From Clostridia bacterium (GTDB taxonomy: Bacteria > CBDUZB01 > JAGLHV01): DNA of 64,000 nt. This document shows positions 20,342 to 59,756 of this stretch, in pieces. Every line of letters starts with the position of its first letter. The stretch's first letter is position 1. The notes under the pieces are model-generated. The model had not been told where the DNA came from, ran no database searches, and worked only from the letters and a program-made list of their open reading frames with translations. The position numbers and the translations under genes are program-made. The stretch covers positions 9,672 through 73,671 of the forward strand of contig DAOVVV010000003.1 in NCBI GenBank assembly GCA_030637025.1. Direction: 5' to 3'.

Positions 20342-21910
20342 ATGAAAATAAAAAGAGGATTGCATTTTAAATTCGTATCATCTATTACTTTTTTGATAAT
20401 ATTGGTAGCAGCAAGTATTAGTGGATTCTTTTTTAATTATCAAAAAACTCTTTTGACTGACTCCTTGATAAAAAGGGGTCTTTCTTTAGCTAAAAATTTA
20501 GCCTATAATTGTGAATATGGTGTTTTAATTGCCGATAAAACAATCCTTTCTAAACTCATTGATGGAATACTTAAAGAGCCTGATCTAATTTACGCTTCAA
20601 TCCAAGATAAAAGGGGAGAAATTCTCTCCCAGCGAAAACTTAATAAAATAGACATACCTGAATATAAAAAACCTATTCAGCCAATAAATAAATATTCTGT
20701 TAATTTTTCTCTTTCTTCCGGCCAAAAGATATGCCAGATACTGGTTCCAATAAGTATTCAGACAGATAAAAAAGAAATAGAAATGGAAGAAATGATGTTT
20801 ATAGATAAAGCCGAGTCTGAAAAAAAAATAACAGAAGTAATAGGTTTAGTTCACATAGGACTTTCTTTAAAAAAAATGGATTTCCTCCTTGTTCAAATCA
20901 CCAAAAAAATCGGATTAATAACTATCTGTATCATTATCATTGGGATAGGGGGAGCAATACTTTTAATCAGTGCCATTGTAAAACCTATACGAACATTAAT
21001 TGATGAAGCCCGAAAAATTGCCAAAGGTAATTTAAATCGACAGGTACCAATATATTCCCATGATGAAATAGGGGAACTATCCTCCGCTTTTAACCGGATG
21101 GTAAAAGAATTACAAAAATCAAAAAAAGAAATGGAACATTACAATAAAACCCTGGAAGAAAAAGTAGAAGAACGGACAAAAAAACTGAAAGATGCTCAAT
21201 CCCAATTAATTCAATCAGCAAAAATGGCCGCTATCGGACAATTAGGAGCTAGCGTAGCACATGAATTAAACAACCCTCTTGGCGGTATTTTAGGCTATGC
21301 ACAACATCTTTTAAACAAAATAAAAAAAACGGACTTTCGTGTAGTTGATTTCAAAAAATGCGAAAAAAATTTAACTTATATAGAAATAGAGGCTCAGCGT
21401 TGTAAAGAAATTGTAGAAAACCTGCTTATTTTTTCGCGAAAGCCTGTTTCCCCCCAAAAACCCCTTAATCTAAAACTAGTATTAGAAACTACACTTTTTG
21501 TATTGAACCACTCTCTCTCTTCACACAATATAAAAGTAATTTCCCATGTCGACCCGGATTTAAAAAAAGTAATCGGAGATGCTAACCAGTTACAACAAGT
21601 TTTTACTAATATAATTATAAATTCCCAGCATGCTATGCAAAAGGAAGGGACACTAACCATTATTGCTCAAAATAAAAATAAAAATGAGATTGAAGTGTCT
21701 TTTTCCGATACGGGTTGTGGAATTTCCAGAGAGAATATAAATAAAATTTTTGAACCGTTTTTTACTACGAAACAAGATCATAAAGGAACAGGTCTTGGAC
21801 TATCTATCAGCTATGAAATCATCAAAAAACATCAAGGAAAAATAAAAGTAAAAAGTGAAATAGGAAAAGGAACTACTTTTACTATCATATTAGCAATCTG
21901 TAAAGCTTAA
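20342..21910 (+). CDS. sensor histidine kinase (TM-sensor-TM-HAMP-HisKA-HATPase)
   Basis: 522 aa, with AGAGG before the ATG. The H-box is ASVAHELNNPLGG, the G1 box DTGCGI and the G2 box GTGLGLS. Confidence 0.92.
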   Translation: MKIKRGLHFKFVSSITFLIILVAASISGFFFNYQKTLLTDSLIKRGLSLAKNLAYNCEYGVLIADKTILSKLIDGILKEPDLIYASIQDKRGEILSQRKLNKIDIPEYKKPIQPINKYSVNFSLSSGQKICQILVPISIQTDKKEIEMEEMMFIDKAESEKKITEVIGLVHIGLSLKKMDFLLVQITKKIGLITICIIIIGIGGAILLISAIVKPIRTLIDEARKIAKGNLNRQVPIYSHDEIGELSSAFNRMVKELQKSKKEMEHYNKTLEEKVEERTKKLKDAQSQLIQSAKMAAIGQLGASVAHELNNPLGGILGYAQHLLNKIKKTDFRVVDFKKCEKNLTYIEIEAQRCKEIVENLLIFSRKPVSPQKPLNLKLVLETTLFVLNHSLSSHNIKVISHVDPDLKKVIGDANQLQQVFTNIIINSQHAMQKEGTLTIIAQNKNKNEIEVSFSDTGCGISRENINKIFEPFFTTKQDHKGTGLGLSISYEIIKKHQGKIKVKSEIGKGTTFTIILAICKA

Positions 21911-21930
21911 AAAAAATCAAGGAGAAAATT

Positions 21931-23448
21931 ATGAGCTGGGGGAAAATACTAGTAATAGATGATGAAGAAATTATGTGCCATCTACTTTCTGACTTATTAA
22001 AAGATAAGGGCTACAGTGTTAAATATGCCCAAACAGGTAAAGAAGGAATACAATCGGCACAAAAAGAATCTTTTGATGTGGTTATAACCGATATAAAAAT
22101 ACCTGATATGAACGGTGTTGAAATCCTGGCTAAACTTAAAGCTATCGACTCTTCTATAATCGTTATCGTAATTACAGCTTTTGGAACCATGGAAACTGCA
22201 CAACAAGCATTACGACTGGGTGCTTACGACTATATTACCAAACCTTTTGATGTAGAAAAAATTTCTTTTGTAGTAAAAAGGGCTCTCTCTTCGAAAAAAA
22301 TGATGCTTACCAATAAAAAATTAATGTATAAATTACAAAAACAAAATCAACTCCTGGAAAAAAAAGTAAAAGAAAGAACCCAACAATTAACTCTTCTTTA
22401 TAAAATAGGCATAGAACTTTCTTCTTCTTTAAAATTAGAAAAGGTTCTCCAGAATATAGTTGAAAAAGTTACTTCTCTTCTGAATTTAGAAATTTGTTCT
22501 ATCCTTTTATGGAATAATGAAAAAGAAGAATTATCCATTAAATGCGCTCAGGGTTTAAGTGATGACATTATCCGTACAACAAGAATTAAAAAAAATGACG
22601 CAATATCCGGATGGGTATTCGAAAAAAATACTCCTTTATTTATTACAGATATAGAAGACGACCCCCGTTTTAAAAAAAGGTCTCAGGAAAAATACTATAC
22701 CAGATCATTGATAAGCGTACCTTTATCCAGAGAAAACAATGTCATTGGAATAATAAACATTAATAACAAAAAAACAAAAAAACCTTTTAGTAAGGATGAT
22801 TTTAATCTACTTAAAGAAATAGCTATAGAAGCAACTATCGCTATTGAAAATGCCACCCTTTACAAAAAACTACAAGACACACATCTACGTACTATTACCG
22901 CTTTAACCGCAGCTATCGACGCAAAAGATCATTATACCCGCCACCATTCTGAACAAGTAACTAAATATGCTATAGCTATTGCCACCAAAATGCAGTTAGA
23001 TTCTTCTGAAATAGAAACAATCAAGCAAGCCGGTCAATTACATGACATAGGTAAAATAGGAATTCCCGATTATATCCTGACTAAACCGGGAAAATTAAAT
23101 GCTCAGGAATGGAGGGAAGTAAAACTTCATCCTATACGGGGGGAAGAAATACTGGAACCCTTAAATTATTTAAAAAAGGTAATTAAAATAATTAAACAAC
23201 ATCATGAACACTATAATGGAGCAGGCTACCCCGCCGGAAAAAAAGGGACTGATATCGAATTGGGAGCCCGTATAATGACCATCGCTGATGCTTTTGATGC
23301 CATGACTTCAGAAAGGCCTTATCGTAAAAAACTTTCCGTTGTAAGTGCAATTGAGGAACTGGAAAGAAATAAAGGAACTCAATTTGATCCGGAAATAGTA
23401 GATGTTTTTATAAGCGTTTTAAAGAAAAACCCTGATTTGATTACCTGA
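21931..23448 (+). CDS. response regulator with REC-GAF-HD-GYP architecture (c-di-GMP phosphodiesterase type)
   Basis: 505 aa. REC shows ILVIDDEE...FDVVITDIKIPDMNG, followed by a central GAF-like region. HD-GYP motifs are HHSEQV, LHDIGKIGIPD and HHEHYNGAGYPAGKKG. Confidence 0.9.
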   Translation: MSWGKILVIDDEEIMCHLLSDLLKDKGYSVKYAQTGKEGIQSAQKESFDVVITDIKIPDMNGVEILAKLKAIDSSIIVIVITAFGTMETAQQALRLGAYDYITKPFDVEKISFVVKRALSSKKMMLTNKKLMYKLQKQNQLLEKKVKERTQQLTLLYKIGIELSSSLKLEKVLQNIVEKVTSLLNLEICSILLWNNEKEELSIKCAQGLSDDIIRTTRIKKNDAISGWVFEKNTPLFITDIEDDPRFKKRSQEKYYTRSLISVPLSRENNVIGIININNKKTKKPFSKDDFNLLKEIAIEATIAIENATLYKKLQDTHLRTITALTAAIDAKDHYTRHHSEQVTKYAIAIATKMQLDSSEIETIKQAGQLHDIGKIGIPDYILTKPGKLNAQEWREVKLHPIRGEEILEPLNYLKKVIKIIKQHHEHYNGAGYPAGKKGTDIELGARIMTIADAFDAMTSERPYRKKLSVVSAIEELERNKGTQFDPEIVDVFISVLKKNPDLIT

Positions 23449-25894: not shown

Positions 25895-25987
25895 TTTATA
25901 TTACCTTATTAAAATAAACAAGACCCGCCTTATCCGCTAATCCACAAGGCGGAGCGGACAGGCAATCTAACCCAATAAAACCAATTC

Positions 25988-26049
25988 AACTGTCTTTTAA
26001 CTGTCTTTTAACTGTCTTTTAACTGTCTTTTAACCGTCTTTTATCTTTT
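25988..26049. repeat. tandem 11-nt repeat AACTGTCTTTT x4, plus one variant (AACCGTCTTTT) and a truncated unit
   Basis: Read directly from the sequence. Units are at 25988, 25999, 26010, 26021 and 26032, with a partial unit at 26043. Confidence 0.95.
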
Positions 26050-27978: not shown

Positions 27979-28494
27979 CTAAAAAACCGGTTTAAATTTT
28001 TTTCCTAAAATTGTAAATAAAAAAATGATAGAAATTCCTATACAAATAAAAGTATCAGCAAAATTAAAAATAGGCCAGATGCGGAAATCAAAAAAATCAA
28101 CTACTTCCCCTCTGAATATACGGTCAAAAAGATTACCTAAAATACCTCCTAAAATAAAACCCAGGGGTAACCTTAAAAAAAATTCTTCTTTATTTAATTT
28201 TTTGTATAGCCCAACAACCATTATTATTCCTACAAAAGAAATTAGAATAAAAATAAAATTTCCTTGCGGAAAAATACCAAAAGCAGCTCCTCTATTTACA
28301 ATATAGGTGAAATGAAAAACATTTTTTATTATGGGTATGGATTGCCCCATATCCATCTTATTAACCACCAATAATTTAGTGGCCATATCTAAAAAAAAGA
28401 CAGCTAAGGCAACCAGATAAAACATGATTAATATACTATCCCCTCTATATTTTTTATTGTAAACATAAATACATAAACAGCCCATAGCCCACAT
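27979..28494 (-). CDS. lspA: lipoprotein signal peptidase II
   Basis: YIVNRGAAFG and VVDFFDFRIWPIFNFADTFI are present. The ORF-track start at 28494 gives an atypical 23-aa leader. ATG 28425 (MFYLVALAVFFLD) is the more typical start. Confidence 0.88.
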   Translation of the reverse strand: MWAMGCLCIYVYNKKYRGDSILIMFYLVALAVFFLDMATKLLVVNKMDMGQSIPIIKNVFHFTYIVNRGAAFGIFPQGNFIFILISFVGIIMVVGLYKKLNKEEFFLRLPLGFILGGILGNLFDRIFRGEVVDFFDFRIWPIFNFADTFICIGISIIFLFTILGKKFKPVF

Positions 28495-28553
28495 TATGAA
28501 TTAAAAATGTCTTGTACTAAAATAGTTGACACTTTTTTATATCCTTTAAAATT

Positions 28554-28711
28554 AAAGGTAAAATGTGTTTTGAACGACTTAGCAAATTTTAACAAAAACA
28601 TGCGCAAAAAAAATGAGCCTGTTTGAACAAAGCGAGTTGCTCATTTTTAACCTGTTTTTGTGTGCCCGAAGGGTAAAATTATGCGTTTAGAGAAAAACAC
28701 ATTTTAGCTTT
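28554..28711. repeat. 158-nt palindromic (MITE-like or structured-RNA) element, full copy 1
   Basis: Terminal arms AAAGGTAAAATGTGTTTT / AAAACACATTTTAGCTTT are complementary. Inner arms are at 28592..28602 and 28651..28661. The central hairpin is ATGAGC/GCTCAT (28613..28618 and 28639..28644). It has the same length as the copy at 54938..55095 and about 85% identity to it. Confidence 0.85.
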
Positions 28712-28722
28712 AATAAACACCC

Positions 28723-31536
28723 TTATGCATTGCAGAGCATATTTTTCACCACTGTTACACATCGATGACACAACTGGGAATGTTCACTGTCTTCCCCCAC
28801 CCTTTCGCTATAATTCCAGCAACGCACACATTTCTCTCCTACAGCAAAGGAAACTTTTATTTTTAAAAGCGGCAAATCCTCATCCTTATAGGCATCAGAC
28901 GGACCCTCACTATCAAAAAAATCTACCTGAGAAACAATAAAAACTGTTGCCCAGATATTTTTATTTTCCTGTAAAAATTGATACCAATCCACAGCAGTAG
29001 TATAGATTTCTATTTTGGCTTCTAAAGAATTACCGATTATTTTTCCGGTACGTGCTTTTTCCAGTGCCCTGGTCACAATACTTTTAACCTTCAATATTTT
29101 TGCCCATTTTTCATCTAAATCATCATTTTTCCACAAGTTGTTTTCCCGGGGAAAATCTGAAAGAAAAACACTCTTTTCTTTTTTGGATAAAAATTGCCAG
29201 ACTTCTTCACAAGTATGAGAAAGTATCGGAGCCAACAATTTCACTATACTCAACAAAATTTCAGACATTACCGTTTGTGCAGATCTTCTTTGCTTAGAAT
29301 CTACCTGAAAAGTATATAACCTGTCTTTTAAAACATCCAAATAAAACGAAGAAAGCTGCACGGCACAAAAATTATGAATTAATTTATAGACCCGATGAAA
29401 TTGATAATTATTATATCCATAAATCACTTCTTCAATCAGTTTTTGTAATTTGTGCAATGCCCATTTATCTATCTCTTCTAATTGCTCATAAGAAACTTTC
29501 TGTTCAAAATTAAAATCGTTAAGATTGGACAACAAATAACGTATAGTATTACGTATGCGGCGATATGTATCTATCGATTGATTAATAATTTCTCCGGAAA
29601 GACGTATATCTTCTGCATAATTTTCCGAAGAAACCCAAAGCCTCAGGATATCCGCTCCATAATCCTTAATTATTTCCTGAGGGGCAATAACATTTCCTAA
29701 AGATTTACTCATTTTCTTCCCTTCTCCGTCTACTATAAATCCGTGAGTTAAAACAGAACCAAAAGGTGCTTTTCCATTTAAAGCACAGGAAATAAGCAAA
29801 GAAACCTGAAACCATCCTCTGTGCTGGTCTGACCCTTCCAGGTATAAATCAGCAGGCCAGGAAAGAAAATCCCTCATCTTCAATACCGCTTCACTACTTA
29901 CTGCAGAATCAAACCATACATCTAATATATCTTCTTCTTTTTTAAATACCCCTTTTCCACATTTTAAACAACGAATATCTGAAGATAAAATTTCTTCCGG
30001 TTTCCGGATAAACCAGCTGTCGGACCCTTCTTTACTAAATAATTCCCCTACTGCCTCTATTGCTTCTTCATTTAATAAGGGCTCATTACACTCCCGGCAA
30101 TAAAAAATAGGTAAAGGAATCCCCCAATAACGCTGCCGGGAAAGACACCAGTCAGGACGGTTTTCCACCATTGCTTTTATTCTCTTTTCCCCTGCGGAAG
30201 GGATCCAGTTTACTTTTGTGCTTTCTGCAACGGCAACAGAGCGTAAATCATTTTTATCTATCTTCATAAACCATTGGTCGGTAGAACGGAAAATAACCGG
30301 TTTCTTACAACGCCAGCAATGAGGATAAGAATGCTCAATCTCCCGGGTATAAAGAAGATTTCCTGATTCTTTAATTTTTTCAATGATTTTAGAATTACAA
30401 TCCCATACATTCTGCCCTGAAAATAACTCTACTTCTTTAGTAAATCTTCCTTTTTCATCCACCGGGGAATAAATCGGTAAATTATATCTTAAGCCTGCCG
30501 CATAATCTTCCTGGCCGTGTCCGGGAGCTATATGAACAACACCCGTTCCCTCCTCTATACTTACAAAATCACCCAATATTCCTACGGATATCTTTTCTAA
30601 AAAAGGATGTTTACATTTTATTCCACTCAGTTCTCTTCCTTTTAAAATCTTTACAACCTTATATTCTTCAATTCCTATCTTGTCCTTAAGCGCGGGTAAT
30701 AAATCCTTAGCGATAATTAACAGTTCTTCTTTATCGGAAGAAAACTTACAATAAGTTAAAGCATAATCAAATTCAGGATGAAAACATAATGCCTGATTAG
30801 CCGGTAAAGTCCAGGGAGTAGTTGTCCAGACTAAAACCGAGGGTAAAGAAGTAAATTTTTCTTTACCCAGCAAAGAAATACTTTCTTCTTTTAAATCAAA
30901 TTTTACATAAATAGAAGGAGAGGAATGATCCATGTATTCTACTTCTGCCTCAGCTAAAGCAGTTTCACAACTAATACACCAGTAAACAGGTTTTACCCCC
31001 CTGTAAATATATCCTTTTTTTACTAATTCTTTAAAAACTTTTATCGTTTTAGCTTCATAGTTAGGATTAATAGTTAAATAAGGATTTTCCCAATCAGCAA
31101 ATATTCCTAATCTCTTAAATTCTTCTTTTTGAACTTTAACAAACTTTAGAGCATATTGAGCTGCTTTTCGGCGAAACTTCACTCTTTCTATTTCATTTTT
31201 ATTTATGCCTAATTTTTTAAACAACTGAAATTCAATAGGTAAACCATGACAATCCCATCCCGGAACAAAAGGAACACTAAAATCAGACATAGATTTATAC
31301 TTAACAATAATATCTTTCAGTATTTTATTTAAAGCATGTCCCATATGAATATTCCCGTTAGCATAAGGAGGACCGTCATGGAGAATGAATTTCTTTTTAT
31401 TCATATTCTTTTTTTGAATTAAATCATATAATTTAAGTTCACTCCATACTTTTTGTATTTGTATCTCCTTTTGAGGTAAATTAGCTTTCATCGGGAATTT
31501 AGTCTTAGGCAAATTCAATGTCTTATTGTATTCCAT
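28723..31536 (-). CDS. ileS: isoleucyl-tRNA synthetase (type 1, with C-terminal zinc-binding Cys cluster)
   Basis: 937 aa with PYANGNIHMGHALNK (HIGH-type), GKKMSKSLGN (KMSKS) and the C-terminal CVRCWNY...CHRC. Confidence 0.95.
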   Translation of the reverse strand: MEYNKTLNLPKTKFPMKANLPQKEIQIQKVWSELKLYDLIQKKNMNKKKFILHDGPPYANGNIHMGHALNKILKDIIVKYKSMSDFSVPFVPGWDCHGLPIEFQLFKKLGINKNEIERVKFRRKAAQYALKFVKVQKEEFKRLGIFADWENPYLTINPNYEAKTIKVFKELVKKGYIYRGVKPVYWCISCETALAEAEVEYMDHSSPSIYVKFDLKEESISLLGKEKFTSLPSVLVWTTTPWTLPANQALCFHPEFDYALTYCKFSSDKEELLIIAKDLLPALKDKIGIEEYKVVKILKGRELSGIKCKHPFLEKISVGILGDFVSIEEGTGVVHIAPGHGQEDYAAGLRYNLPIYSPVDEKGRFTKEVELFSGQNVWDCNSKIIEKIKESGNLLYTREIEHSYPHCWRCKKPVIFRSTDQWFMKIDKNDLRSVAVAESTKVNWIPSAGEKRIKAMVENRPDWCLSRQRYWGIPLPIFYCRECNEPLLNEEAIEAVGELFSKEGSDSWFIRKPEEILSSDIRCLKCGKGVFKKEEDILDVWFDSAVSSEAVLKMRDFLSWPADLYLEGSDQHRGWFQVSLLISCALNGKAPFGSVLTHGFIVDGEGKKMSKSLGNVIAPQEIIKDYGADILRLWVSSENYAEDIRLSGEIINQSIDTYRRIRNTIRYLLSNLNDFNFEQKVSYEQLEEIDKWALHKLQKLIEEVIYGYNNYQFHRVYKLIHNFCAVQLSSFYLDVLKDRLYTFQVDSKQRRSAQTVMSEILLSIVKLLAPILSHTCEEVWQFLSKKEKSVFLSDFPRENNLWKNDDLDEKWAKILKVKSIVTRALEKARTGKIIGNSLEAKIEIYTTAVDWYQFLQENKNIWATVFIVSQVDFFDSEGPSDAYKDEDLPLLKIKVSFAVGEKCVRCWNYSERVGEDSEHSQLCHRCVTVVKNMLCNA

Positions 31537-38926: not shown

Positions 38927-38977
38927 TTTGTCTTTCTCCCTGTTTCACCAAATTAACTAAAATCCTATGAGAAATAA

Positions 38978-39002
38978 CCCCGTACCCTGAAAAAGTACGG
39001 GG
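38978..39002 (-). terminator. Rho-independent terminator candidate downstream of lpxI
   Basis: The minus strand reads CCCCGTAC-TTTTTCAGG-GTACGGGG followed by TTATTTCTCAT. The stem is 8 bp and GC-rich, rare in this AT-rich DNA. It starts about 90 nt after the lpxI stop codon. Confidence 0.6.
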
Positions 39003-39092
39003 AAAATATCCTCTTCCAACATAAAATCATTCATTCCATTAGCTATTTTAATAACCCAATATCGGCAATACCCGTATTTCTTAATTTCTATC

Positions 39093-43905: not shown

Positions 43906-43962
43906 TTTTTTACTCCTCTATCCTATCTCTTTAAAAACAAATACTAAATCCTATTATCTAAA

Positions 43963-43983
43963 TCCGCCTTAAAGACTGGCGGA
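43963..43983. repeat. 21-nt hairpin TCCGCC-TTAAAGACT-GGCGGA (inverted family partner of 26074..26094)
   Basis: Its reverse complement TCCGCCAGTCTTTAAGGCGGA differs from TCCACCAATCTTTAAGGTGGA at one loop position and one compensated stem pair. On the minus strand it follows the bamA stop codon and precedes TTTAG. Confidence 0.8.
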
Positions 43984-44046
43984 CAGGCTGTCGCTTTGCT
44001 CCAGCAAAACAAATTAGATATTGCAATCAACAACTCATAAATTTAT

Positions 44047-52233: not shown

Positions 52234-53190
52234 TTATTGACCTGGATTTTTTAAGCCTGTTTTAACCGCTGGTAAGTATTCCCCTGCCCGGTAAGAACTA
52301 CGCACATAAGGGCCACTAACTACATAAAGGAAACCCATTGATTTTGCTTTGTTCTGATAATAAGTAAATTCCCGGGGATGAAAATATTTCTTTACCGGAT
52401 AATGCTGCAAAGTAGGAGCCAAATATTGCCCGATACTTAAAAAATCACATCCTGCCCGACGTAAGTTGGAAAAAGCACTCAAGACCTCTTCTTCTTCTTC
52501 CCCTAAACCCAACATCAGTGATGATTTTGTATAAATTTGAGGATTAAAATCCTTAACTTTTTCTAAAAGAGTAAGTGTTCTAAAATAATCCGCTCCTTGA
52601 CGCAAATCTTGATACAAACGGGGAACAGTTTCTAGATTATGGCCAATAATGTCCGGTTTTGCCCGGACAACGATTCTAAGAGCATCTTCGTTCCCTCCAA
52701 AATCAGGAATAAGAACTTCTATGGTAACTTTTTTTTCTTTTGTTTGTCGGCGAATACTAAAAATAGTCCGGGCATAAATATCCGCTCCACCATCAGCAAG
52801 GTCATCCCTGGTAACACTGGTAATTACTATATGTTTTAATTTAAGCCGGGCTACTGCCTGAGCAACCCTTTTTGGTTCTTCTTCATCAGGAGCAGAAGGA
52901 ATCCCCTTATCTACATTACAAAACATACATCCACGAGTACAAGTCTTACCCAGTATAAGAAAAGTTGCTTCTCCCCGGGAAAAACACTCTGAAATATTAG
53001 GACAGGCAGCTTCCTGGCAAACAGAATGCAAATTTAAATCACTAATTAAACTCTTTATCTGCCTACAATCATTAAAATTAATTTTTTTATTCAACCACTC
53101 CGGCTTCCTGATATACACAGTAAACCCCGCTTTCCAAACTAAAATTTTGATAAAAGACAGGCACAAAGGCATCAAGGCACTGAGGCACAA
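52234..53190 (-). CDS. lipA: lipoyl synthase
   Basis: CQEAACPNISECF and the radical-SAM motif CTRGCMFCNV are present. The ORF-track start (TTG 53190) lies inside an AGGCAC repeat module. ATG 53172 or GTG 53118 (VYIRKPEWL) are more plausible starts. Confidence 0.92.
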   Translation of the reverse strand: MCLSALMPLCLSFIKILVWKAGFTVYIRKPEWLNKKINFNDCRQIKSLISDLNLHSVCQEAACPNISECFSRGEATFLILGKTCTRGCMFCNVDKGIPSAPDEEEPKRVAQAVARLKLKHIVITSVTRDDLADGGADIYARTIFSIRRQTKEKKVTIEVLIPDFGGNEDALRIVVRAKPDIIGHNLETVPRLYQDLRQGADYFRTLTLLEKVKDFNPQIYTKSSLMLGLGEEEEEVLSAFSNLRRAGCDFLSIGQYLAPTLQHYPVKKYFHPREFTYYQNKAKSMGFLYVVSGPYVRSSYRAGEYLPAVKTGLKNPGQ

Positions 53191-53198
53191 AGTTAAAA
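53155..53198. repeat. AGGCAC-word module (AGACAGGCACAAAGGCATCAAGGCACTGAGGCACAAAGTTAAAA), copy 1
   Basis: It occurs as a direct repeat at 53305..53340 and inverted at 26096..26124. Confidence 0.85.
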
Positions 53199-53304
53199 AA
53201 TAAACATTAGTCCATAGATAACAAAAACAGACAAATCCTAAATTCGAATATCTAAATACTAAACAAATTCTAAATCCAAAATACTAAATTCAAAACAAAG
53301 ACAA

Positions 53305-53340
53305 AGACAGGCACAAAGGCACAAAGGCACAAAGTTAAAG
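53305..53340. repeat. AGGCAC-word module, copy 2
   Basis: AGACAGGCACAAAGGCACAAAGGCACAAAGTTAAAG was read directly from the sequence. Confidence 0.85.
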
Positions 53341-53356
53341 ACTAAAGGCAAGAATG

Positions 53357-53400
53357 AAGGCGAAATGTGTTTCGAACGATTTAGCGAATTTTAGCAAAAA
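53357..53400. repeat. left arm of the 158-nt palindromic element (solo half copy)
   Basis: AAGGCGAAATGTGTTTCGAACGATTTAGCGAATTTTAGCAAAAA aligns with 28554..28597 and 54938..54981. Confidence 0.75.
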
Positions 53401-53453
53401 TAAACGTTTTCAAACCGCTTTTTTTAAAACCTCAATTTAATCAATTTAAACTT

Positions 53454-53580
53454 CCAACTCATATATCTGTTGTCTTTATTCCGTTGTCTATGGACTATCG
53501 ACTGTGGACTATGGACTATTTTGTTTTTACGTGCCCGCAGGGTAAAATTATGCGTCCAGAGAGAAACATACTTTGCCTTT
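53454..53580. repeat. 127-nt block duplicated at 59612..59736 (includes the 33-nt WORD repeat 53485..53517 and the right arm 53531..53580 of the palindromic element)
   Basis: The first 69 nt (53454..53522) are identical to 59612..59680. The remainder differs by a 2-nt T-run indel and a few substitutions. Confidence 0.9.
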
Positions 53581-53611
53581 ATTCTACTCCTCCCCTTTTA
53601 ATCTCTAGAAT

Positions 53612-53702
53612 AAAGGTAAAATATGTTTCGAACGATTTAGCGAATTTTTCGAGTAAGGCAACCCTTTGAGTCTTTCGGGCGACCAAGGGTCGCCCCTACA
53701 TT
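53612..53702. repeat. left arm of the palindromic element (53612..53648) followed by the GC hairpin module (53662..53702)
   Basis: AAAGGTAAAATATGTTTCGAACGATTTAGCGAATTTT is followed by CCCTTTGAGTCTTTCGGGCGACCAAGGGTCGCCCCTACATT. Confidence 0.8.
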
Positions 53703-53758
53703 ATACCTTTTCCTTTTATCCTTTAACCAATCTAACTAATAAAACCAATCTGAACCAA

Positions 53759-54574
53759 TTAAACTGTCTTTCTATAAACATTCCATTCTTCCCCACTATA
53801 TTTTGTTTCCCTTAAGTCCTGTGCCAATTTTTTTTCCTCAAAACTTAGTTCTTCTTCCCTTAAATTAACCGAAAAAGTCTCCCGGAAAGATTCTATAAGT
53901 TTAAGTTGTATCTCATTAAAACTTACTTCTTTTCCCATTACTTCGGATAGGGAACATATTCTTTTTTTTATTCTTCCCGATTTTTTTTTTAAAAAAGGAG
54001 TAACCTCATCTATATTTAATTTTAAAGGAATTGACCCATGTTGAAAAATCAAACCCTTTCGCCTTTTTTGCGCATTACCCCCTATTTTTTTTCCATTAAT
54101 AAGAATATCATATTCCTCTTTGGAAGCAAAACAAAAGCTGGAAGGTTTTCCTAATTTTTCACCTTCTACTTTACCCTCTACGGCAAAATATGCCTCTATG
54201 CCCAATTTTTTATACATATTAATTAAAAAAGAACAGATTGTTTTATAGGAACCTTTTACCCCGGGAAGCATCTCCATTTCTTCCCGGGAACAAATAAAAC
54301 TATAAGTTACTTCCTGATGATGAAAAATTATTCCTCCACCGGTTATTCTTCTTACGAAATTAATACCCTGCCGGGTACATCTCTCTATATCCAGTTCTTG
54401 CCGGACATCCTGAAAATAACCCAGGGAAAAGGCAGGAGGATTCCACCCGTAAATCCTCAGCGTTGGAAGTGTATTCCCTCTATAATGTTCCATCAAGAGC
54501 GCCTCATCTATAGCCATATTATTATAAAGGTCACTAAATCCTGTTTGAATTAACCGCCACTTTTTATTTTTCAT
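53759..54574 (-). CDS. lipoate-protein ligase family protein (LplA catalytic domain / LipM-type octanoyltransferase)
   Basis: 271 aa with RRITGGGIIFHH and the catalytic-Lys region NGKKIGGNAQKRR. It lacks the LplA C-terminal accessory domain and lies between lipA and the gcv genes. Confidence 0.85.
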   Translation of the reverse strand: MKNKKWRLIQTGFSDLYNNMAIDEALLMEHYRGNTLPTLRIYGWNPPAFSLGYFQDVRQELDIERCTRQGINFVRRITGGGIIFHHQEVTYSFICSREEMEMLPGVKGSYKTICSFLINMYKKLGIEAYFAVEGKVEGEKLGKPSSFCFASKEEYDILINGKKIGGNAQKRRKGLIFQHGSIPLKLNIDEVTPFLKKKSGRIKKRICSLSEVMGKEVSFNEIQLKLIESFRETFSVNLREEELSFEEKKLAQDLRETKYSGEEWNVYRKTV

Positions 54575-54780
54575 TTTATTTTTTTTATCTCTTTCGTAAA
54601 TAAATTGAAAACAGATTTAGTCCATAGTCCATAGACTAAAAAATAAATTCAAAATTAAAAATTCAAAACAAAGGACAAAAATAAAAACATATTTAGTCCA
54701 TAGATAAAAACAAAAGACTGTAAATGGTAAATAGCAAAAGAAAAAAAACTAAGATATAAATAAGGAATAAAGATAATTCG

Positions 54781-54840
54781 CGTAGGGGTGGGTTTGCCCA
54801 CCCTTTGAGTCTTTCGGGCGACCAAGGGTCGCCCCTACAT
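54781..54840. repeat. GC hairpin module, double (inverted-duplicate) copy
   Basis: The sequence is CGTAGGGGTGGGTTTGCCCACCCTTTGAGTCTTTCGGGCGACCAAGGGTCGCCCCTACAT. The GGGCGACC-AAG-GGTCGCCC hairpin is the same as at 53662..53702 and 59574..59606. Confidence 0.85.
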
Positions 54841-54863
54841 TTAAATAACTAGCCTGTTTTTGC

Positions 54864-54913
54864 GTGTCCGAAGGGTAAAATTATGCGTCCAGAGAGAAAC
54901 ATATTTTGGCTTT
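54864..54913. repeat. right arm of the palindromic element (solo half copy)
   Basis: The sequence is GTGTCCGAAGGGTAAAATTATGCGTCCAGAGAGAAACATATTTTGGCTTT. Confidence 0.8.
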
Positions 54914-54937
54914 ATTAAACACCTATAAACAAAAAAT

Positions 54938-55095
54938 AAAGGTAAAATGTGTTTCGAACGATATAGCAAATTTTAGTAAAAATAAGCGTTAAAAAAATAA
55001 GCATGTCTGAGCAAAGCGAGTTGCTTATTTTTAGCTTATTTTTGCGTGCCCGAAGGGTAAAATTATGCGTCCAGAGAGAAACATATTTTGACTTT
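54938..55095. repeat. 158-nt palindromic (MITE-like or structured-RNA) element, full copy 2
   Basis: It has the same length and architecture as 28554..28711. Terminal arms are 54938..54955 and 55078..55095, inner arms 54976..54986 and 55035..55045, and the central hairpin ATAAGC/GCTTAT is at 54997..55002 and 55023..55028. Confidence 0.85.
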
Positions 55096-55106
55096 ATTCA
55101 ACAACC

Positions 55107-56552
55107 TTATTTTTCCCATTTTAAATTGAGTTCGCGTGCTGCTTTAGTCTCATCAAGCCTTAAAACAGGAGTAGTCAAAGGAGCTTCTTTTATTTTTTCA
55201 GGATGCTTTTTAGCTAATTCGGCAATCTCAATCATTACCTCAATAAATTTATCCAGTGTTTCTTTTGATTCTGTTTCAGTAGGTTCAATCATAATAGATT
55301 CTTTTACACTAATCGGAAAATATATTGTCGGAGGATGAAATCCTTTATCAATTAAATATTTAGCAATATCTACGGCACGCACACCTTTTTTAACCTGCCG
55401 CAAAGCACTGCATACGCATTCATGCATACAAATTTTCTGATAAGGAATATCATAATAATTCTTTAGCCGGGTTCTACAATAATTGGCATTAAGTACAGCA
55501 ATATCACTAACCTCTATTAAACCCGCCTTTCCCAGAAGCAATATATAGGCATAAGTTTTCAAAATTACCAGAAAATTACCATAAAAAGGAGCAACAGAAC
55601 CTATTGATTTTTTATAATTATACTTTAATTTAAACATTCCCTTTGAATCTTGTACTACCCGGGGCACAGGTAAAAAAGAAGAAAGCTCCCTGGTCACACC
55701 TACCGGCCCTGATCCCGGACCACCCCCTCCATGAGGAGTAGCAAATGTCTTATGTAAATTCAAATGTACTACATCAAAACCAATATCACCGGGTCTACAT
55801 TTACCTAATATTGCATTAAAATTTGCGCCGTCATAATAAACAAGGGCATCTACACTATGGGCTAAATCGGTAATTTCTTTTATTCGGGAATTAAAAAGCC
55901 CTAAAGTATTAGGACAGGTTAGCATAACCCCTGCTACTTCCGAATTTAATCTGTTTTTAAATTCTTTCATATCCATATAGCCCTGACTATCCGTAGGAAT
56001 AACAATTATTTCATAACCCAGTAAACCGGCACTAGCAGGATTAGTTCCATGTGAAGAATCCGGAACAATTATATACTTTTTTTTGTTCCTTTTTTTTCTA
56101 TGATAAGCAGCAATTAGGAGTAATCCTGTAAATTCTCCATGTGCCCCAGCCAAAGGCTGCATAGTAAATTCATCCATTCCGGTAATTTCAGAAAGTAACC
56201 TTTCCGTACGATAAATAACTTCTAAAGCACCCTGTACAAATTTTTCTCCGGAATAAATTTGGGGAAATAAAGGATGTAAACCTGTAAAACCTTCCAGAGC
56301 GGCAGCCTCTTCGGTAAATTTAGGATTATACTTCATCGTACAAGAACCTAAAGGATAAAAATGAGTATCTACACAAAAATTCAATCTGGAAAGATTAGTA
56401 AAATGCCTTACCACATCTAATTCGGATACTTCAGGTAAAAAAGGTTCTTCCGTACGTAAATATTTTTCTTCTATTTTCTGTTGGGGAACATCAAAATCCG
56501 GTATTTTTATTCCCCGTCGCCCTTTTTCACTTTTTTCAAAAATCAGTTGCAT
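55107..56552 (-). CDS. gcvPB: glycine dehydrogenase (decarboxylating) subunit 2
   Basis: 481 aa with the PLP-lysine region NLHKTFATPHGGGGPG. It has a 10-nt overlap with gcvPA. Confidence 0.93.
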   Translation of the reverse strand: MQLIFEKSEKGRRGIKIPDFDVPQQKIEEKYLRTEEPFLPEVSELDVVRHFTNLSRLNFCVDTHFYPLGSCTMKYNPKFTEEAAALEGFTGLHPLFPQIYSGEKFVQGALEVIYRTERLLSEITGMDEFTMQPLAGAHGEFTGLLLIAAYHRKKRNKKKYIIVPDSSHGTNPASAGLLGYEIIVIPTDSQGYMDMKEFKNRLNSEVAGVMLTCPNTLGLFNSRIKEITDLAHSVDALVYYDGANFNAILGKCRPGDIGFDVVHLNLHKTFATPHGGGGPGSGPVGVTRELSSFLPVPRVVQDSKGMFKLKYNYKKSIGSVAPFYGNFLVILKTYAYILLLGKAGLIEVSDIAVLNANYCRTRLKNYYDIPYQKICMHECVCSALRQVKKGVRAVDIAKYLIDKGFHPPTIYFPISVKESIMIEPTETESKETLDKFIEVMIEIAELAKKHPEKIKEAPLTTPVLRLDETKAARELNLKWEK

Positions 56553-59386: not shown

Positions 59387-59413
59387 AGAATGATACCTCA
59401 AAAAACAAAAGAT

Positions 59414-59491
59414 AGTCCATAGTCCACAGTCGATAGTCCATAGACAAAGACTAAAGACAGTCCATAGTCCACAGTCAATAGTCCATAGATA
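59414..59491. repeat. two tandem 33-nt WORD repeats (59414..59446 and 59459..59491), inverted relative to 59643..59675
   Basis: AGTCCATAGTCCACAGTCGATAGTCCATAGACA is the exact reverse complement of 59643..59675. The second copy has 2 mismatches. Confidence 0.95.
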
Positions 59492-59573
59492 AAGACAAAA
59501 AACAAATAATAAATACTAAATCCTAAACAAACACTAAATTCAAAAATCAAAATCCAAAACAAAAAATATAAAG

Positions 59574-59606
59574 GTCTTTCGGGCGACCAAGGGTCGCCCC
59601 TACATT
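59574..59606. repeat. GC hairpin module (third copy)
   Basis: The sequence is GTCTTTCGGGCGACCAAGGGTCGCCCCTACATT. Confidence 0.85.
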
Positions 59607-59611
59607 AACTC

Positions 59612-59736
59612 CCAACTCATATATCTGTTGTCTTTATTCCGTTGTCTATGGACTATCGACTGTGGACTATGGACTATTTTTTTTGTGTGCCCGAAGGGTA
59701 AAATTATGCGTTTAGAGAAAAACATATTTTGCCTTT
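59612..59736. repeat. 125-nt block duplicated at 53454..53580 (contains WORD repeat 59643..59675 and palindromic-element right arm 59687..59736)
   Basis: This comes from hand alignment. The first 69 nt are identical. Confidence 0.9.
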
Positions 59737-59756
59737 GTTCTCCCCCCCCCCACTTC

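Follow-up and report, generated by a model that had tools for sequence, protein, structure and literature searches.

Positions 54938–55095 of a 64,000-nt stretch of DNA (contig DAOVVV010000003.1 of assembly GCA_030637025.1, positions 9,672 to 73,671; hereafter the window) hold a 158-nt palindrome that recurs in full at 28554–28711. The locus raises the question of whether such a palindrome is maintained as a folded structure, on which strand, and at what level. The original prediction had the two copies differing by compensatory changes and favored selection on an RNA or single-stranded DNA (ssDNA) structure over neutral decay. We show here that pairing is preserved on one strand only, the + strand of the window, by way of wobble pairs and compensatory changes, and that the element is strictly orientation-locked. 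Our reading, which is tentative and falls somewhat short of an even chance, is that of a lineage-specific, small, non-coding, and non-autonomous mobile repeat, similar to miniature inverted-repeat transposable elements (MITEs), with a strand-specific structural requirement.

Base-pairing of the element and its covariation

Both full copies are on the + strand and of the basic 158-nt form, called type A, with covariance-model scores of 187 bits (copy 1, 28554–28711) and 190 bits (copy 2, 54938–55095). Copy 1 sits between ileS (28723–31536, − strand) and lspA (27979–28494, − strand). Copy 2 lies directly after the stop codon of gcvPB (55107–55109; gene at 55107–56552, − strand), upstream of lplA; another assembly of the species (L137) has an identical copy there. 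The two copies align without gaps with 134 of 158 positions identical (84.8%), in agreement with the equal length and the identity of about 85% first estimated by hand; 20 of the 24 differences are transitions. Each copy can form a terminal helix, an internal loop, one helix of 9 bp and an inner one of 12 bp, a central hairpin, and a GCCC-NNA-GGG side hairpin, so that the one long hairpin proposed for each copy does exist, in a branched form. The minimum free energies of the + strand are −42.5 (copy 1) and −44.0 kcal/mol (copy 2), with z-scores of −3.9 and −4.8 and none of 200 shuffles as good; those of the − strand are −36.5 and −30.7 kcal/mol.

Four base pairs had been read as changing on both sides with pairing kept, and all four are real. 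From copy 1 to copy 2, pair 18–141 goes from T-A to C-G, pair 39–108 from A-T to G-C, pair 46–101 from C-G to T-A, and pair 62–89 from G-C to A-T. With the same 24 substitutions scattered at random, the mean number of such double changes is 0.85 (P for at least four, 0.004). The T/C mismatch of copy 1 at 48–99 is indeed an A-T pair in copy 2. On the other hand, pair 40–107 becomes a T.G wobble rather than the T-A of the earlier reading. The palindrome as first drawn was too short at its ends by ~3–7 nt; a fifth compensatory pair is present (A-T versus T-A, columns 11–172 of A2), and the insertion unit is 169 nt.

When 11 type A copies are aligned without gaps and blind to structure, pairing is kept through changes on both sides at 10 of 64 pairs, against 2.5 ± 1.3 in shuffles (none of 500 reaches 10) and 0–2 in registers slid by 1–3 columns. 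With 27 copies aligned to the covariance model, 12 such pairs are present, against 3.9 ± 1.5 in shuffles; the covariation seen in two copies thus stays significant when more copies are collected, aligned, and modeled. Part of it is inheritance inside two subfamilies, with many cells representing few events: the left-arm variants C..TA and T..CT show perfect linkage over the 11 copies and are for the most part linked to G/A on the right arm. Compensatory changes are also known to arise without selection, through template-switch mutation in one step (PMC8794818), and individual compensatory pairs may stem from this. Wobble intermediates are frequent at the covarying pairs, as at pair 30–342 (U-A 12, U.G 7, C-G 6). 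The terminal helix of ~22 bp (AAAGGYAAAATRTGTTTY and its complement) is paired in 95.5%–97% of cells over 11–27 copies. The stem of the central hairpin occurs as ATGAGC/GCTCAT, ATAAGC/GCTTAT, ATGGAA/TTCCAT, or ATGGAA/TTTCAT, around a loop, TGAGCAAAGCGAGTT, that is nearly invariant among copies.

Read on the + strand in the palindromic register, 170 cells are G.T and 18 are A.C. In 26 of 27 copies, the + strand gives the better RNA fold, with a mean advantage of 14.5 kcal/mol (the strand difference is 4.1 kcal/mol with DNA parameters), and the consensus energy is −50.75 kcal/mol on the + strand versus −24.2 kcal/mol on the complement. Mutation bias was considered as the cause of the wobble asymmetry and rejected. 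GC skew is −0.34 on the + strand of other intergenic DNA, 0.00 in the element, and +0.35 at third codon positions of the sense strand. The genomic skew implies loss of G on the + strand and therefore predicts A.C mismatches there, the opposite type to the G.T observed.

When the non-Watson–Crick states are sorted by the number of copies sharing each, singletons are without bias (G.T 10, A.C 9, other 11), whereas the states common to at least four copies are G.T in 10 cases and A.C in none (Fisher P = 0.011 for the contrast with singletons). The density of singleton variants is not lower in stems (0.203 per site) than at unpaired positions (0.125). Resident copies, then, decay neutrally, and the variants that have spread among copies respect + strand pairing. 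Since the wobble bias is in the shared variants and missing from the private mutations, selection seems to act on the amplification of the element and not on each resident copy; alternatively, host-level selection may slowly purge the variants that break the + strand fold. The predicted selection on structure is upheld as far as non-random pairing goes (covariation; 170:18), but not for the resident copies (10:9).

Orientation, insertion sites, and distribution

The orientation was assessed with the nearest stop-to-stop open reading frames (ORFs) of at least 120 aa around 39 copies (n = 61), and 60 of the 61 run opposite to the AAAGGTAAAATG reading of the element. The well-folding strand is therefore antisense to the neighboring genes, and for that reason a simple cis-acting structure in the operon mRNA is disfavored. 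By the usual GC-skew rule, the well-folding strand should also be the leading-strand template.

Comparison with related metagenome-assembled genomes (MAGs) gives the insertion unit. In RS_13_36, the ileS-lspA spacer is empty and 33 nt long (gcaTAATTTTGTAAGATAAAAAAATTAAGGGAGACAAGT-ATG). The window has gcaTA-[169 nt]-TA-ATTTTAAAGGATATAAAAAAG at this site, and the empty site, in L056, reads gcaTA|ATTTTG. From the empty site, the inserted unit of copy 1 is 28555–28723, with TA at 28553–28554 and 28724–28725; the insertion is in the TAA stop codon of ileS, at its TA, and the first base of the element restores the stop. By analogy, the unit of copy 2 is 54939–55107 (169 nt), with TA at 54937–54938 and at 55108–55109, in the TAA stop codon of gcvPB that abuts the copy. 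In the MAG CSMAG_496, the ileS-lspA spacer holds a different filler. The gcvPB-lplA spacer is without a full copy in L034, and in L033 it has a copy that starts ~120 nt after the stop codon, versus 11 nt in the window. Conversely, L019 has two copies where the syntenic window spacers (38927–39092 and 43906–44046) have none.

The family is narrowly distributed. A 29-nt pattern of the right arm occurs five times in the window (none expected) and at 32 loci in only three MAGs (CSMAG_496, RS_13_36, and SRR21487743_metabat2_78) among 185,579 species genomes. A covariance model built from 11 full copies detects the family at least 39 times, as copies or fragments, across the window and three related MAGs, with many copies at contig ends; in the gcv loci of Omnitrophota that are more distant it detects none. 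A search with 20 bases of the right arm as the pattern gave no matches in JGI metagenome contigs and none in IMG/VR viral contigs, so there is no evidence from this search for a wider distribution or a phage origin. Rfam gives no match over the whole window at gathering score, and nothing credible at E ≤ 10 over 53100–55200, the best score over the element being 22.9 bits against a cut-off of 127; the statement that the sequence is not a recognized RNA family holds at both levels. Given the lack of an Rfam match and the occurrence in only three of 185,579 species genomes plus that of the window, the repeat family is previously undescribed and restricted to a narrow clade of uncultured bacteria related to Omnitrophota.

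The GcvPB of the window is 89%–90% identical to that of two MAGs and 62%–68% identical to that of MAGs labeled Candidatus Omnitrophota; judging from these identities, the host is an uncultured diderm bacterium related to Omnitrophota. The MAG richest in copies was deposited as "Clostridia bacterium CSMAG_496", and its genes are 75%–83% identical to those of the window, including the LPS, BamA, and Skp cluster (L019 versus 39–46 kb of the window). The nearest named relatives of the window's GcvPB are Omnitrophota, and that label is probably wrong. The species of the window has been assembled in several metagenomes of one study (ZHAN22-2), with contigs that typically end at element repeats.

A proposed MITE-like repeat and the rival explanations

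The element has the features of a MITE: terminal inverted repeats (TIRs) of ~22 bp, small size, no transposase coding, and dispersed copies with presence/absence differences. It is on account of the TIRs, the small size, the non-coding character, the many copies, the insertion differences, and the probable TA flanks that we read it as MITE-like. Among the options offered at the outset (a small RNA, a hairpin-dependent MITE, or a REP/RAYT-like substrate), the MITE fits best, and neither of the other two is supported for the 158-nt element.

The basic unit is the branched palindrome of ~158–169 nt, made of the ~22-bp TIRs, two internal helices, and the small GC hairpin. It would insert into AT-rich intergenic spacers, at the TA of a TAA stop codon in the two full copies of the window, by means of an enzyme encoded elsewhere in the genome. 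The gene of that partner, whether a DDE transposase (IS630/Tc1-like), a Y1/HUH enzyme (RAYT), or a recombinase, would be flanked by AAAGGYAAAATRTGTTT. Copies recombine into modular variants and half-elements. Amplification would need this particular strand to be folded, as ssDNA or as RNA; lineages that keep the fold would spread, and the inserted copies would then decay neutrally. The orientation lock may come from the host, if the only insertions tolerated are those giving the poorly folding complement in operon mRNA. The opposite orientation would place a hairpin of about −50 kcal/mol and a U-run (UUUAUUUU) inside operons such as ileS-lspA and gcvPB-lplA, as a likely terminator or RNase III substrate. 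Integration itself could also be strand-specific. The most economical account, we infer, is that amplification needs the folded strand and that copies survive only with the poorly folding complement in the mRNA.

Several observations weigh against a MITE-like repeat of this sort. To our knowledge, ordinary cut-and-paste MITEs have neither an orientation lock nor a strand-specific wobble bias. Gene orientation and replication direction are confounded here, 46 of 48 genes being on one strand. The loops are as conserved as the stems, which may be a sign of function at the sequence level; the spacers of CSMAG_496 and RS_13_36 are ~95% identical in alignable blocks, and their comparison is without power for conservation beyond neutral. 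The TA duplication depends on a single clean empty site, together with the corresponding geometry of copy 2, in DNA of 32% GC where TA is common, and the copies of CSMAG_496 have flanks that are themselves conserved (AAAACAAAAAAAT ... ATTTTCCTCGTT), which makes their ends ambiguous. Copies occur at orthologous positions in different MAGs (L016/L020, L023/L026, L009/L024, L010/L022, and L030 with the ~59.7 kb copy of the window); part of the family therefore predates these species, and much of it may be old and now immobile. Finally, no transposase with matching ends was found. A Pfam domain search of the 48 window ORFs gives no transposase, integrase, or HUH domain, as had been stated for transposases. 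A scan of the genome contigs for the 18-nt terminal repeat gives, among the matches listed, nearly only chance occurrences and no inverted pair 1–2 kb apart.

Candidates for a coding role were rejected. A sense-strand ORF of 17 codons, MF(L/F)S(R/K/G)RIILPxGHAKTS, is present in all right arms, and its variable sites are distributed 6:5:3 by codon position and are mostly non-synonymous. An ORF of 271 aa, with a left arm (53612) on one side and a right arm (54913) on the other, encodes a lipoate-protein ligase (LplA-B_cat, 7e-45); it is neither a transposase nor cargo of the element, and the same ORF is in the same place in a relative without a full-length copy or a flanking arm pair.

The kind of element is already known (ERIC, Correia, RUP, and especially bcr1), and nothing calls for a system of a new class. 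Atypical of these families are the orientation lock and the antisense-strand wobble bias, and because of them the mechanism cannot just be the one of Correia or ERIC. Correia elements have TA at both termini, and ERIC and Correia occur in both orientations, unlike the present element (60 of 61 flanking ORFs antisense). ERIC, or IRU (Enterobacteriaceae, ~127 bp), and Correia, or CREE (Neisseria, ~104–157 bp), resemble it as palindromic, intergenic, and MITE-like repeats of 100–160 bp. The element has no sequence similarity to either, and it differs by its branched fold with an extra GC hairpin and by its swappable modules. When co-transcribed, ERIC and Correia form long hairpins and can have orientation-dependent effects on mRNA, with RNase E for ERIC and RNase III for Correia (PMC3049150).

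The summary in PMC3184786 groups bcr1, ERIC, Correia, and RUP as MITE-like repeats of 100–160 bp and gives TA at both termini for the ERIC type, as in our element. As described there, bcr1 of the Bacillus cereus group (~155 bp) is like the element in size, in its interspersed intergenic copies at locations not conserved between related strains, in its short flanking direct repeats, and in the compensatory changes that keep its long fold (PMC3184786). It differs in its 5-bp duplications, where the element has a TA flank, and from that summary no sequence relationship is apparent; the same summary does not report an absolute orientation lock or a wobble bias on the antisense strand for bcr1. Pneumococcal BOX, RUP, and SPRITE repeats share with the element a modular make-up (boxA/B/C) and a place between co-transcribed genes, and some are terminator-like (PMC3049150). 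BOX is, however, a tandem modular array and not one long palindrome, and matching insertion sequences have been proposed for RUP and BOX, whereas there is no such evidence for the element.

REP, BIME, and REPIN repeats are likewise extragenic palindromes after genes, and they are thought to be mobilized as single-stranded hairpins by HUH enzymes (RAYT). Compared with REP, the 158-nt element is AT-rich, five times longer, and without a GTAG head, and no RAYT is present among the window ORFs. A GC-rich palindrome of 20–40 nt with a GTAG/GTGG head, the REP feature, is found in the separate B, D8, and GGGTGAAC modules. The IS200/IS605-derived PATE have direct subterminal hairpins at both ends, no TIR, and no duplication, and their active strand is that of the lagging-strand template; in the element, the TIRs are long, there is one small GC hairpin, the flanks are apparently TA, and the folding strand is on what should be the leading-strand template. 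Integron attC sites (e.g., the Vibrio cholerae repeats) are also imperfect palindromes (57–141 nt) among co-oriented genes, in fixed orientation and with one folded strand used. In sedentary attC arrays, the strand used lies on the leading-strand template (PMC5371416). The element lacks R''/R' core sites (RYYYAAC / GTTRRRY), and there is neither an integrase nor a cassette array; it is flanked by the syntenic housekeeping operons ileS-lspA and gcv-lplA-lipA.

A more novel version of the element is unlikely: a hairpin-recognizing enzyme outside the IS200/IS605 group that inserts a long TIR palindrome strand-specifically, or ~100 or more dispersed, structured antisense RNAs punctuating operons in a lineage of Omnitrophota. 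If either were true, there would be a new mode of mobilization, or a function, dependent on one folded strand; with the enzyme, the folding strand would always end up antisense to transcription and on the leading-strand template.

Among the rivals to a MITE-like repeat, there is a small chance that the element moves as an ssDNA hairpin, with an HUH-type (IS200/IS605 or RAYT-like) or integrase-like enzyme integrating it strand-specifically at the replication fork. Such a mechanism would by itself yield the near-absolute lock (60/61), and the wobble bias is strand-specific and confined to the propagating variants. Replication coupling is documented for IS608 (PMC5027513) and strand-specific folded substrates for attC sites (PMC5371416), and REP-like hairpins with GTAG heads, the usual substrates of RAYT, are in or beside many copies. 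Yet, by GC skew, the folding strand would be the leading-strand template, while IS200/IS605 use the lagging-strand template, and the element has long TIRs and apparent TA flanks in place of a pair of direct subterminal hairpins and no duplication. The two strands differ by only 4.1 kcal/mol when DNA parameters are used, and no HUH or integrase gene is among the window ORFs.

Also doubtful is a host cis-acting RNA element of the operon transcripts (an attenuator, a terminator, a 3′-end stabilizer, or an RNase processing site), in the manner of co-transcribed REP/BIME, ERIC, or Correia and maintained by host-level selection. Every copy is between co-directional genes in fixed orientation, the two full copies and the fragment at ~59.7 kb start 11–20 nt after a stop codon, and effects of this sort are known for BIME, ERIC, and Correia (PMC3049150). 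A run of 6–7 U (ATTTTTTTGTTT) comes after the hairpin on the sense strand, where the stem is weak and AU-rich. Consensus scans for promoters and terminators around both copies gave no site at the element, with counts not above those of shuffles. The sense-strand fold is the much weaker one (−24.2 versus −50.75 kcal/mol), and the wobbles turn into A.C in the mRNA. Moreover, orthologous spacers of close relatives are without the element, private mutations are as frequent in stems as in loops, and many copies are truncated or rearranged.

We consider still less probable a multi-copy family of structured small RNAs with transcription of their own, encoded on the + strand and antisense to the operons. 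Helices rich in G.U and poor in A.C, against the mutation bias, classically mark an RNA that folds on the + strand; there the hairpin is followed by UUUAUUUU, and the central loop TGAGCAAAGCGAGTT hardly varies. Against small RNAs, the sequences upstream of the copies differ and share no sigma-70-like promoter, half-elements and variants with a swapped center are common, the resident copies decay regardless of pairing, and Rfam has no match. Least probable of all is a neutral palindrome, in which template switching (documented to create and maintain perfect hairpins, PMC8794818) or arm-to-arm conversion, together with inheritance in the two linked subfamilies, would produce the compensatory pairs without selection on the folded strand; private mutations do look neutral, but template switching restores Watson–Crick pairs and leaves unexplained the 10:0 excess of shared G.T over A.C, against the mutation skew, and the frequent wobble intermediates at covarying pairs fit stepwise change.

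Together with the wobble bias, the lock suggests a strand-specific step either in mobilization or in host tolerance, in a phylum without cultured, genetically tractable members. The repeat offers a case, accessible from sequence only, in which selection on amplification can be separated from selection on resident copies. If the hairpin matters for expression, the element would do so inside essential operons (ileS-lspA and glycine cleavage/lipoylation). Assemblies break at the repeats, and knowledge of them aids scaffolding and avoids chimeric joins, of which two loci in other assemblies of the species are possible examples. In L139 (4293–4406), a deletion of 182 nt lies precisely between the neighboring solo right arm and that of copy 2, and L136 (4660–4760) has a different 3′ end of gcvPB, joined to a poly-G-containing right arm like that at 59741–59751. 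These may be real recombinants or assembly errors induced by the repeats and are not used as evidence.

Modular variants and genomic surroundings

The element ranges from 158 to 270 nt. Type A is the 158-nt form; in type B, 8 nt of the inner left arm are swapped for a GC-rich hairpin of 31 nt with a GTAG head; in type C, the central hairpin is swapped for a module of ~110 nt. Combined forms exist, and solo left and solo right arms are about equally numerous. In the small GC hairpin GCCC-NNA-GGG (loop at 28671–28679 and 55055–55063), the stem is invariant in 27 copies, and the first two bases of the loop are hypervariable (GA, AT, GC, AA, or AC), far above any other unpaired position.

Of the solo arms first listed for the window, those at 53612–53648, 54864–54913, and 59687–59736 are indeed solo, whereas 53357–53400 and 53531–53580 are the two arms of one full-length variant of type C at 53357–53580 (+ strand; 110.7 bits over model positions 1–182). 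In its center, the ~110-nt module that replaces the central hairpin ends in heptamers of the GGACTAT type. The left arm at 53612–53648 belongs to a + strand piece without a right arm (53612–53702), which continues with a degenerate B module and the GTAG hairpin D8 (53661–53702). At 54780–54841, B (GTAGGGGTGGGTTTGCCCACCC, + strand) and D8 (GTAGGGGCGACCCTTGGTCGCCC, − strand) form an inverted pair of REP-like GTAG hairpins, which is joined to the right arm that follows. This right arm (54850–54913, + strand) has no left arm and lies immediately 5′ of copy 2. A further + strand piece without a left arm, at 59565–59744, consists of a D8-like hairpin (59565–59606), part of a type C center (59607–59684), and a right arm (59673–59744). 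It is ~20 nt from the stop codon of the Memo/AMMECR1 gene, and the orthologous position holds a copy in RS_13_36 (L030).

The GC-rich, REP-like hairpins with a GTAG head form three families (GTAGGGGCGACCCTTGGTCGCCC, GTAGGGGTGGGCTTGCCCACCC, and GTAGGGGTGAACCCCTGTGTTCACCC), one of which is the insert that marks type B copies. They are found at 53661–53702, 54800–54841, and 59565–59606 with the head on the − strand, at 54782–54803 on the + strand, and at various loci from L001 to L032; the two at 54782–54841 form an inverted doublet of REPIN type. Their presence suggests a RAYT-type system somewhere in these genomes. Two copies of the D8 module, 42 nt long and 100% identical (53661–53702 and 54800–54841), flank lplA at a distance of 1139 nt, with a left arm joined to one of them and a right arm to the other. 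They suggest that a single composite element was split or that two were partly deleted. In the relative L034, lplA is in the same place without the two D8 modules.

In the window (GC ~32%), 46 of 48 large ORFs are on the − strand, with a G-rich sense strand. The only + strand genes are those of a histidine kinase and an HD-GYP-like response regulator (20342–23448). The cluster around copy 2 reads, in transcription order, gcvT, gcvH, gcvPA, gcvPB, lplA, and lipA, with other fragments of the element in its spacers. The remaining ORFs are housekeeping genes: lpxA/B/C/D/I, BamA, Skp, TamB, a polysaccharide cluster, and holB/tmk.

Short tandem repeats fill the spacers at 53133–53346, 53484–53516, 54619–54640, and 59401–59500. 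Their units are the 7-nt GGACTAT/AGTCCAT and variants, the 8-nt GGCACAAA, and AAATACTAAATTC-like sequences, and in each of the four genomes they occur beside the element. A tandem repeat with a unit of 11 nt (TTTTAACTGTC, ~5.5 copies) is at 25985–26046, in the spacer (322 nt) upstream of the gene for guanylate kinase. A further interspersed module, in sense orientation GCTGGAGCGGAGCGGAAGTC...GCCAGTCTTTAAGGCGG, is found at 43964–44010 of the window, at 120–170 of L033, at 5405–5450 of L034, and at many of the L0xx loci. It often adjoins the palindromic element, and it occupies a spacer that in CSMAG_496 holds the element itself.

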